The translations under genes and the position numbers were made by a program. Below, piece by piece: positions 25,374 through 25,663 of a stretch of 55,396 bases of DNA (the first letter of the stretch is position 1; each line of letters begins with the position of its first letter). This DNA is from a virus (lineage: Duplodnaviria > Heunggongvirae > Uroviricota > Caudoviricetes), in the IMG/VR virus record IMGVR_UViG_2721755728_000002. One strand, given 5' to 3'. Below the pieces are notes generated by a model. It searched no databases and was not told the origin of the DNA. It worked only from the letters and a program-made list of their open reading frames with translations.

Positions 25374-25465
25374 CCCGACCCGGGGGGGGTATCATCCGGC
25401 GTAAAAAAAGATCGCTTTGGACACCGCCCCCCCTCTCACGCAGAGAAAAAATTCCCGTTTCAGGG

Positions 25466-25592
25466 CAGTTAACATGTTAACTGGCTGTCCGGGCATTTTT
25501 GCGGTTTTTATCTTTATTATTCAGTTTGTTGTGCGGAAAAAATGTTAACTGGCTTTTTCAGCAAATGTTAACCAGGCAGCAGTTAACATTTG
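25466..25592. repeat. GTTAAC-containing repeat cluster (putative cos/terminase-binding region)
   Basis: Five copies within ~130 bp at 25468, 25475, 25543, 25567 and 25583, including palindromic GTTAACATGTTAAC. Confidence 0.45.
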
Positions 25593-25663
25593 CGGCATGA
25601 GACGCCGGGAAAAATGGGCTGAACCATACCCGGCTGAGTGCGTTCTGGACCCGGGAGGAGGCT

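Follow-up and report, generated by a model that had tools for sequence, protein, structure and literature searches.

Herein we examined a cluster of GTTAAC repeats in a lambdoid prophage of Escherichia coli, situated between an HNH endonuclease gene and the gene of the small terminase subunit (terS, encoding TerS). As judged by comparison with related loci, these repeats are most likely candidate landing sites of the small terminase for DNA packaging. The DNA analyzed, hereafter the window, is the whole stretch of 55,396 nucleotides in IMG/VR record IMGVR_UViG_2721755728_000002 (one strand, 5′ to 3′), and it is a prophage of the long-tailed Shiga toxin (Stx) phage type, genus Pankowvirus. We consider it probable that positions 25382-25593 of the window constitute the cos site of this prophage, i.e., a cleavage core followed by a cosB-like array for TerS recognition. 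An initial annotation had put forward the repeat cluster as a candidate cos/cosB, and the cosB role is now supported by comparative evidence of four kinds: the conservation of the repeats, their concerted change between lineages, the co-variation of half-sites with TerS, and the retention of the array in a satellite.

Repeats and cohesive end in the HNH-terS spacer

The hexamer GTTAAC occurs 16 times in the window, and five of these copies (25468, 25476, 25544, 25567, and 25582) are confined to 120 bp (25468-25587) of the spacer between the HNH gene and terS. The total is ordinary (16 against 9.6 ± 3.1 expected, with 4 of 100 shuffles reaching 16). The clustering is non-random and far beyond chance: in 300 first-order Markov simulations of the window the maximum was three copies per 126 bp, the Poisson probability of five copies in a given 126-bp stretch is 8 × 10−11, and five copies were never obtained when the 290-bp spacer alone was simulated 20,000 times. 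Position count and simulations thus confirm that five such elements are concentrated before the terminase genes, as the initial annotation had said. It was also right in placing them in an intergenic region with an HNH gene upstream and a small terminase gene downstream (both assigned by Pfam, PF01844 and PF03592), while the size it gave, 260 bp, has to be corrected to 290 bp (25374-25663).

The hexamers are the cores of three longer units, of which one is palindromic, one stands singly, and one is an inverted pair. R1 and R2 (25466-25483, no strand assigned) together form the perfect 18-bp palindrome CAGTTAACATGTTAACTG, within which an ATG lies at 25474. R3 (25539-25554, plus strand) is a single copy, AAAATGTTAACTGGCT, with 94% identity to the R2 unit over 16 nt. 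R4 (GCAAATGTTAAC, 25561-25572) and R5 (GTTAACATTTGC, 25582-25593) make up an inverted pair (25561-25593, no strand assigned) whose 12-nt arms are 100% complementary across a 9-nt gap. The stretch between R2 and R3 (25487-25538, plus strand) contains phased T-tracts starting at its positions +12, +21, and +29 and is, from its sequence, likely an intrinsic bend; no match to the IHF consensus WATCAANNNNTTR was found in 25374-25663 with up to one mismatch allowed. Downstream of R5 follows a variable leader (25594-25663, plus strand), which carries the present terS ribosome-binding site, GGGAGGAGG, at 25653-25661.

The chromosome end was located through a near-identical phage, the Stx1 siphophage Lys8385Vzw, which was induced, its virion DNA sequenced and analyzed with PhageTerm, by which its 3′ cohesive ends were determined as CGCCCCCCCT (Zhang et al. 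2021, PMC7946995). This cohesive end is accordingly already published and is not new here. The GenBank record of Lys8385Vzw (MT225100) ends in ...GGACACCGCCCCCCCT and restarts with CTCACGCAGAG... (the start is also given as CTCACGCAGAGAAAAAATTCCCG...), and its first 306 nt are identical to window positions 25435-25740 (306/306), with 47 mismatches over 2,600 nt. From these ends and this identity it follows that the 10-nt 3′ cohesive end CGCCCCCCCT corresponds to 25425-25434 (plus strand) and that the left end of the packaged chromosome is 25435, the cut between 25434 and 25435 being transferred from Lys8385Vzw. The proposal of a cos site between the HNH gene and terS is supported by this published end, which falls within the spacer and is of the cohesive type, as opposed to termini elsewhere or headful packaging. 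The cut falls inside the interval first annotated, 32 bp before the first GTTAAC, and cleavage thus takes place outside the repeats. These fill the stretch from the cut to terS, which is the position of cosB in lambda. In virion coordinates, R1/R2 covers +32 to +49, the GTTAAC cores begin at +34, +42, +110, +133, and +148 (span +34 to +153), and terS starts at +230.

A comparison with HK97, made before the Lys8385Vzw mapping was found, had pointed to the same spot. The right end of HK97, in which GGGGGGGG(G) is followed by 42 nt and then the cut after ...GACCGCCGCCAAA, aligns with the G8 run and GACACCGCCCCCCC of the window, and when it was compared with the core of a sister family none of 2000 shuffles scored as well. 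The HK97 cos junction (L291:670-733 joined to L290:1-50), with its G8-9 run 42 nt before the cut and its end GACCGCCGCCAAA, in both features parallels the window family, which has the G8 run and GACACCGCCCCCCC(T). Upstream of the cut, there may be a conserved recognition element for an HK97-type large terminase (TerL) or for HNH, despite unrelated TerS proteins. Published papers on the Pankowvirus phages phi330 and phiSTEC799 do not report termini, and those records of Pseudomonas and Burkholderia relatives that begin just before terS give no information on the ends, as their order may have been changed. A BLAST search of phage records with the conserved core did not bring up one ending within it, although the record of Lys8385Vzw does break there.

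Conservation, co-variation with TerS, and satellite loci

The cos core begins with a G8 run (25382-25389, plus strand), its left boundary, whose last G lies 45 nt before the cut. A G-rich run is found at this position in all 20 Enterobacterales relatives (mostly an unbroken G6-G9, interrupted in a few) as well as in satellites and HK97. The conserved core GGACACCGCCCCCCCTCTCA (25419-25438, plus strand), the equivalent of cosN, spans the cleavage site and is near-invariant across four diverged lineages, i.e., the window, L167 (TerS 66% identical to that of the window), L165 (TerS 77% identical), and the satellite L251; the pattern GGACACCGCNCCCCNNCTCA was recovered from more than 120 phage and satellite loci. 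It is followed by the conserved GCAGAGAAAAAATTCCCGTTTCAGGG (25440-25465, plus strand), consisting of an A-tract and a relic of the ancestral terS ribosome-binding region, whose counterpart in relatives, CAGAAAAAATTCCCCTCTGGAGGG, stands directly before the terS ATG.

These relatives are 20 prophages from other Enterobacterales genera with TerS proteins 33-49% identical to that of the window, which were retrieved by an alignment-based scan of genome contigs (a single-protein scan gave no matches). They share ~105 bp of DNA-level conservation immediately upstream of terS, in the order G7-8 run, ~37-nt spacer, GGACACCGCGCCCCCTCTCACGCACAGAAAAAATTCCCCTCTGGAGGGTGTAAAC, and then ATGTTAACAGCG..., the terS start (Met-Leu-Thr). 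In all relatives without a repeat array, terS starts with ATGTTAAC, which encodes Met-Leu-Thr, and a near-palindrome, GT(A/T)AACATGTTAAC, spans the start codon. Because codon 2 of terS, TTA (Leu), is unchanged in 19 of the 20 (L101 reads GTGTTTAC) while neighboring synonymous sites vary, its constancy points to a constraint at the nucleotide level, on the DNA itself. The block equivalent to the conserved DNA of the relatives is window 25382-25481, where the ATG at 25474 no longer starts terS, and on this alignment the ATG inside R1/R2 is best read as the ancestral terS start codon. About 190 bp with three further GTTAAC units now separate the palindrome from the real terS start, which has decayed to GTGCTGACA. 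Each forward ATGTTAAC opens a short open reading frame (ORF), at 25474-25548 (MLTGCPGIFAVFIFIIQFVVRKKC), 25542-25571 (MLTGFFSKC), and 25565-25600 (MLTRQQLTFAA); the first begins at what was the ancestral terS start, and whereas a TAA within the following GTTAAC terminates each of the first two, the third ends at TGA. A conserved small peptide from the ancestral ATG was considered and rejected, the ORF being 24, 24, 14, and 4 codons long in the different lineages.

In an alignment of 91 unique variants of the window type, variation affects 10 of the 70 columns within the repeats and 56 of the 143 remaining non-coding columns downstream of the core (Fisher p = 2.4 × 10−4), a value for the repeats that is similar to that of the terS coding region (15/136). 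Resolved by part, varying columns number 3/21 in R1/R2, 2/16 in R3, and 5/33 in R4/R5, compared to 20/52 in the T-tract spacer and 29/70 in the leader (25594-25663). The offsets of the repeats from the core, 49/57/125/148-149/163-164, recur in the four diverged lineages, between whose repeats the sequence has diverged, and the T-tracts at +12, +21, and +29 of the spacer recur in the three phage lineages. The repeats also change together. L165 and L166 have no GTTAAC anywhere and carry ATAAACATGTTTAT, ATGTTTAT, ATGTTTAC, and GTAAACAT at the same five positions (units ATAAAC/GTTTAT/GTTTAT/GTTTAC/GTAAAC); their TerL is 97% identical to that of the window, and their TerS recognition region reads AGYSEKSARCKGSQL versus AGYSAKTARVKGSQL in the window. 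L167 retains GTTAAC, and the flanks of its R2 and R3 shift together from TGGCT to CACCT.

The AlphaFold2 model of TerS has a predicted local distance difference test score of 92-96 over residues 1-50, with high values continuing until about residue 56, and folds into four helices (4-14, 19-25, 33-41, and 44-56). The best fold match of this N-terminal domain (Foldseek) is the DNA-binding domain of SF6 G1P (4ZC3; TM 0.84, root-mean-square deviation 1.6 Å, 30% identity), and a search against HK97 gp1 gave no significant similarity (best E 1.2). On this model, the N-terminal helix-turn-helix domain (residues 1-56) is presumed to be the reader of the repeats. Residue 32 immediately precedes the predicted recognition helix (33-41), and its identity goes along with that of the half-site. 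In relatives without a repeat array, TerS proteins with KSAR (Ser32) pair with (G/A)TAAAC in the non-coding half-site upstream of the ATG (~25 unique sequences), and those with KTAR (Thr32) pair with GTTAAC (11 unique sequences, GTTGAC in two) or, in L086, with ATTAAC. This association is found again in the repeats of the insert-bearing clade, with Thr32 and TTAAC in the window and Ser32 and TTTA(T/C) in L165. Taken as a whole, the comparative evidence points to the repeats as TerS recognition sites.

The array is also found in a satellite. An 11-kb island at tRNA-Pro between yejM and yejO (L251:10690-10915; L293:1402-12400, NZ_CP145707.1) encodes an integrase, Ash, Icd-like proteins, a primase, SSB, PerC, a lambda gpE-like capsid protein, and a gpD-like decoration protein, and has no terS, terL, or HNH gene of its own. 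The G-run, the core, and the complete set of five GTTAAC are present at its right end, at the offsets of the window; similarity stops right after R5, and the downstream leader is unrelated. Of 5,426 complete E. coli genomes, only 5 have the whole island. Its head genes are of lambda type, yet its cos belongs to an HK97-type packaging machine.

Other loci keep the nicking core and bring different repeats. A group of satellite-like E. coli islands (L168:1380-1510, L169, L180, L198, L217, L248) has its own TerS (P0059/P0053), a G-run, and the core GGACACCGCCCCCCGTCTCA, followed by two direct repeats of AAAAGTTACAC; these islands encode a D5-type primase or AAA_25 protein and a capsid-like gene, with no TerL or HNH gene nearby. 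The C-terminal part of their TerS is closer to the window TerS (59-71%) than are those of the other phage relatives (44-45%), and the N-terminal domain is more diverged. This C-terminal resemblance suggests that the islands may redirect a Pankowvirus-type TerL. In a low-GC phage family (L185:4820-5150; L197, L219, L223, L226, L244, and others), the same nicking core is followed by two to three direct repeats of AAAGTTAAAG, and the TerS has a different N-terminus; it starts with MALTEKMKKFA, and further AAGTTAAAG copies lie inside terS. By analogy, these satellites and phages fit the modular pattern of lambda and its phage-inducible chromosomal islands, with a shared nicking site and lineage-specific recognition repeats (PMC6739421). 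The parallel extends to the satellites SaPIbov5 and EcCICFT073 (Rpp): the terminase-less island carries a helper-type cos, and the other islands keep the nicking core with their own TerS and other repeats, as described for cosN being kept and cosB differing (PMC6739421). Unlike in EcCICFT073, the specificity switch here would be a satellite TerS with a diverged N-terminal domain instead of the Rpp adaptor, and the helper would putatively be of Pankowvirus type.

Packaging model and its alternatives

We propose a site of two modules. In the first, the cleavage core, the G8 run is followed by GGACACCGCCCCCCCTCTCA, within which the cut would leave the 10-nt 3′ overhang; the HK97-type TerL presumably makes this cut, helped by the adjacent HNH protein. 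The second, the cosB-like array, would present five GTTAAC half-sites in the first 160 bp of packaged DNA, laid out as the palindrome (+32 to +49), ~55 bp with phased T-tracts, the single site (+110), and the inverted pair (+133/+148). The N-terminal helix-turn-helix domains of an oligomeric SF6-type TerS would bind the half-sites, the additional copies raising affinity or specificity, and the DNA between sites would bend or wrap at the T-tract spacer. The resulting TerS-DNA complex would anchor TerL at the neighboring core for initiation cleavage and mark the DNA as the phage's own, with packaging running rightwards into terS.

In lambda, cosB comprises the sites R3-I1-R2-R1, which are bound by gpNu1 and determine packaging specificity, and the nicking site is shared among relatives and satellites (PMC6739421). 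The window array resembles cosB in having short repeats in mixed orientation with a probable bend between them, and in its location within the first ~160 bp of packaged DNA, after the nicking site and before the start of terS. It differs in that its TerS is of the Terminase_2/SF6 type (PF03592) and not a gpNu1-family winged-helix protein, in having phased T-tracts in place of an IHF consensus (I1), and in that one of its sites is a perfect palindrome; the machinery differs as well, with a 10-nt 3′ overhang, an HK97-type TerL, and an adjacent HNH gene, whereas lambda has 12-nt 5′ overhangs. The HK97 TerS reads a single 15-bp A-tract-containing site, at +15 to +29, via an arginine clamp (PMC11331095). 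With HK97 the window shares the gene order HNH, cos, terS, terL, a homologous TerL, a 10-nt 3′-protruding cohesive end, a left cos half in which a G-run precedes the cut by ~42-45 nt and the motif GAC(A)CCGCC stands at the cut itself, and a candidate TerS site just downstream of it. HK97 has only its one site and no GTTAAC-type array, and its gp1 lacks a helix-turn-helix and any detectable similarity to the window TerS. The initial annotation had called the arrangement typical of HNH-assisted cos cleavage in HK97-like packaging systems; this stands for the gene order, the TerL (23% identity to gp2), and the 3′ overhang, and fails for the TerS, which is unrelated to gp1, and for the array, HK97 having a single 15-bp site instead.

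The third relationship is to SF6/SPP1 G1P, whose N-terminal DNA-binding domain is homologous (PF03592; 4ZC3/2CMP). Recognition in SPP1 uses multiple short boxes and DNA bending. SPP1 and SF6 package headfuls from pac, whereas a phage of the window type is cut at a defined cos, given the cohesive ends reported for Lys8385Vzw. The packaging machine thus appears as a mixture, HK97-like in TerL, HNH, overhang, and left cos half, SF6/SPP1-like in TerS, and lambda-like in its multi-site layout, and by sequence comparison the array would functionally be a cosB. In the literature searched, we found no description of the repeat array, of its evolution from a start-codon palindrome, or of its use by satellites; the repeats represent a well-known type of element in a hitherto undescribed form.

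Several points weigh against the array being read by TerS. The assignment of TerS as the binding protein is one that we infer from comparison, and the Ser32/Thr32 rule rests on few independent lineages and has a sole exception in L091 (a Rouxiella silvae prophage, 1480-1520), where ENSAR (Ser32, with Lys31 replaced by Asn) occurs with ATTAAC. The HNH protein of L165 has diverged too (79% identity), and therefore the concerted change does not isolate TerS as the determinant. Retention in the satellite shows only a cis-acting requirement served by some helper factor, not specifically by TerS. The inverted-repeat covariation of R4/R5 and R1-R3 fits an RNA or DNA hairpin equally well, and the relatives manage with one palindrome, so that the three extra copies may be accessory. 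SF6-type TerS proteins, finally, are best known from headful (pac) phages.

Some of these points would be accommodated if the repeats were bound by another protein, i.e., HNH, the upstream ribbon-helix-helix-like DUF3950 protein, a late-gene regulator, or a host nucleoid protein, leaving TerS to read something else such as the conserved A-tract at 25446-25451. The divergence of HNH in the very lineage whose repeats changed, the DUF3950 gene just upstream, and the fact that any helper-supplied factor explains satellite retention would all be in keeping with this, as would the precedent of the HK97 TerS and its A-tract-based site beside the cut (PMC11331095), the conserved A6 of the window lying 11 nt after its cut. 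We nevertheless regard it as unlikely, considering that the half-site base co-varies in two separate clades with the residue just before the TerS recognition helix, that satellites with their own divergent TerS N-terminal domain carry different repeats, and that the window TerS has the canonical helix-turn-helix DNA-binding domain that HK97 gp1 lacks; moreover, no sigma-70 promoter-like site, as needed for an operator function of the repeats, was detected on the coding strand.

Less probable still is a role at the RNA level, in which hairpins R1:R3 and R4:R5 in the late transcript, together with the short upstream ORFs from each ATGTTAAC, would tune terS translation or mRNA stability. The minimum-free-energy fold does pair R1 with R3 and R4 with R5, but it is not significantly more stable than shuffles (z = −1.67, 11/200), and no Rfam match was obtained at E ≤ 1. 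Three short ORFs do begin at ATGTTAAC, the first at the ancestral terS start, yet the length of this first one is not conserved, as given above, and the satellite retains the five repeats without a terS downstream. The L165 stems are kept by changes on both sides; however, all five units, including the unpaired R2, shift to the same new word, an outcome expected of a shared protein-recognition motif but not of independent stems. We assign hardly any probability to a neutral origin of the extra copies, in which parts of the terS 5′ end would have been duplicated several times and at most the ancestral palindrome would be functional. It would account for ATGTTAAC being the terS start in relatives without the array and for short matches between the insert and the terS 5′ end (CCGGGAAAAA at 25605 and 25707; TGTCCGGG), but the resemblance of the two, suggestive as it looks, lacks statistical significance on alignment (468 and 1634 of 5000 shuffles reached the score), and relics would not be expected to be more conserved than their surroundings, to hold exact offsets over deep divergence, to change in concert, and to be retained in a satellite.

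Returning to TerS as the reader, a broader view can be put forward tentatively, at somewhat less than even odds in our estimation, namely that the GTTAAC array is an expandable and re-programmable packaging code for SF6-type TerS. On this view, evolution would have begun with one TerS palindrome covering the terS start, with a possible link between autoregulation and packaging, and duplication would then have produced a five-site phased array. A switch of specificity would take one or a few substitutions where the recognition helix begins (Ser32/Thr32), paired with a T/A change in every half-site, and satellites would exploit the code by copying the whole cos or by keeping the nicking core and bringing their own TerS and repeats. 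If this were true, it would provide a natural, genetically tractable system for studying how ring-shaped helix-turn-helix terminases recognize DNA, and helper-satellite pairs would become predictable among Stx-type prophages.

Pankowvirus prophages (Stx1, Stx2a, and Stx2c converting phages plus many defective cousins) are abundant in enterohaemorrhagic E. coli, and prophages of this type exchange modules and complement each other's packaging. The full packaging signal, nicking core plus array, would show which prophages, remnants, and satellites can be packaged by which terminase, and would explain why a prophage should be disabled by an insertion sequence (IS) or a deletion at the G-run. With ~210 bp of DNA and a 56-residue domain, it also offers a compact test system for the debated question of how oligomeric small terminases read DNA. 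The finding overturns nothing, and extends the cosN/cosB logic of lambda to a mixed machine of HK97-type TerL, HNH, and SF6-type TerS.

Flanking genes and further observations

The HNH endonuclease gene (25008-25373, plus strand, 121 aa; PF01844, E 5.1 × 10−6) lies 290 bp before terS as the rightmost gene of the virion chromosome, a position equal to that of HK97 gp74, to which its product has marginal similarity (24% identity, E 0.057). The gene terS (25664-26227, plus strand) encodes 187 aa with a Terminase_2 domain over residues 2-57 (PF03592, E 1.5 × 10−8), and terL (26224-27885, plus strand) encodes an HK97-type large terminase of 553 aa (PF03354, PF20441). TerL has 23% identity to HK97 gp2 over 490 columns (BLASTP, E 1 × 10−11), and its only sequence match in the PDB is the HK97 TerL 6Z6D (E 9.9 × 10−10). 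A fusion gene for a prohead protease and an HK97-fold capsid protein comes after terL. Just upstream of HNH, on the minus strand, lies a gene for a small DUF3950 protein (PF13132, 24781-24966), which is in the same position in the close relatives L163 and L164. The region is matched by 94 phage records at 92-99% identity, including 2851, BP-4795, YYZ-2008, 1717, and phi330.

A promoter or terminator role of the spacer was considered and rejected, as the spacer contains one weak minus-strand promoter-like match, which is at background level, and no terminator. In prophages of the PPompW type (L294:1146-2620; equivalent to window ~25386), the IS110-family element ISEc20 ends inside the cos G-run, and the upstream HNH and lysis genes are missing; given both, it is expected that these prophages cannot form a right cos half of their own. 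Elsewhere in the window, GTTAAC-like doublets occur at 4415 (GTTAACCAGTTAACAATTAAC, 4415-4431) and at 13574 (CAGTTAACATT...GCTTAACATTAAT, 13574-13611). They may be due to chance; the second, which lies in a stretch without an ORF of at least 70 aa, contains a 12-mer identical to AATGTTAACTGG on the minus strand.

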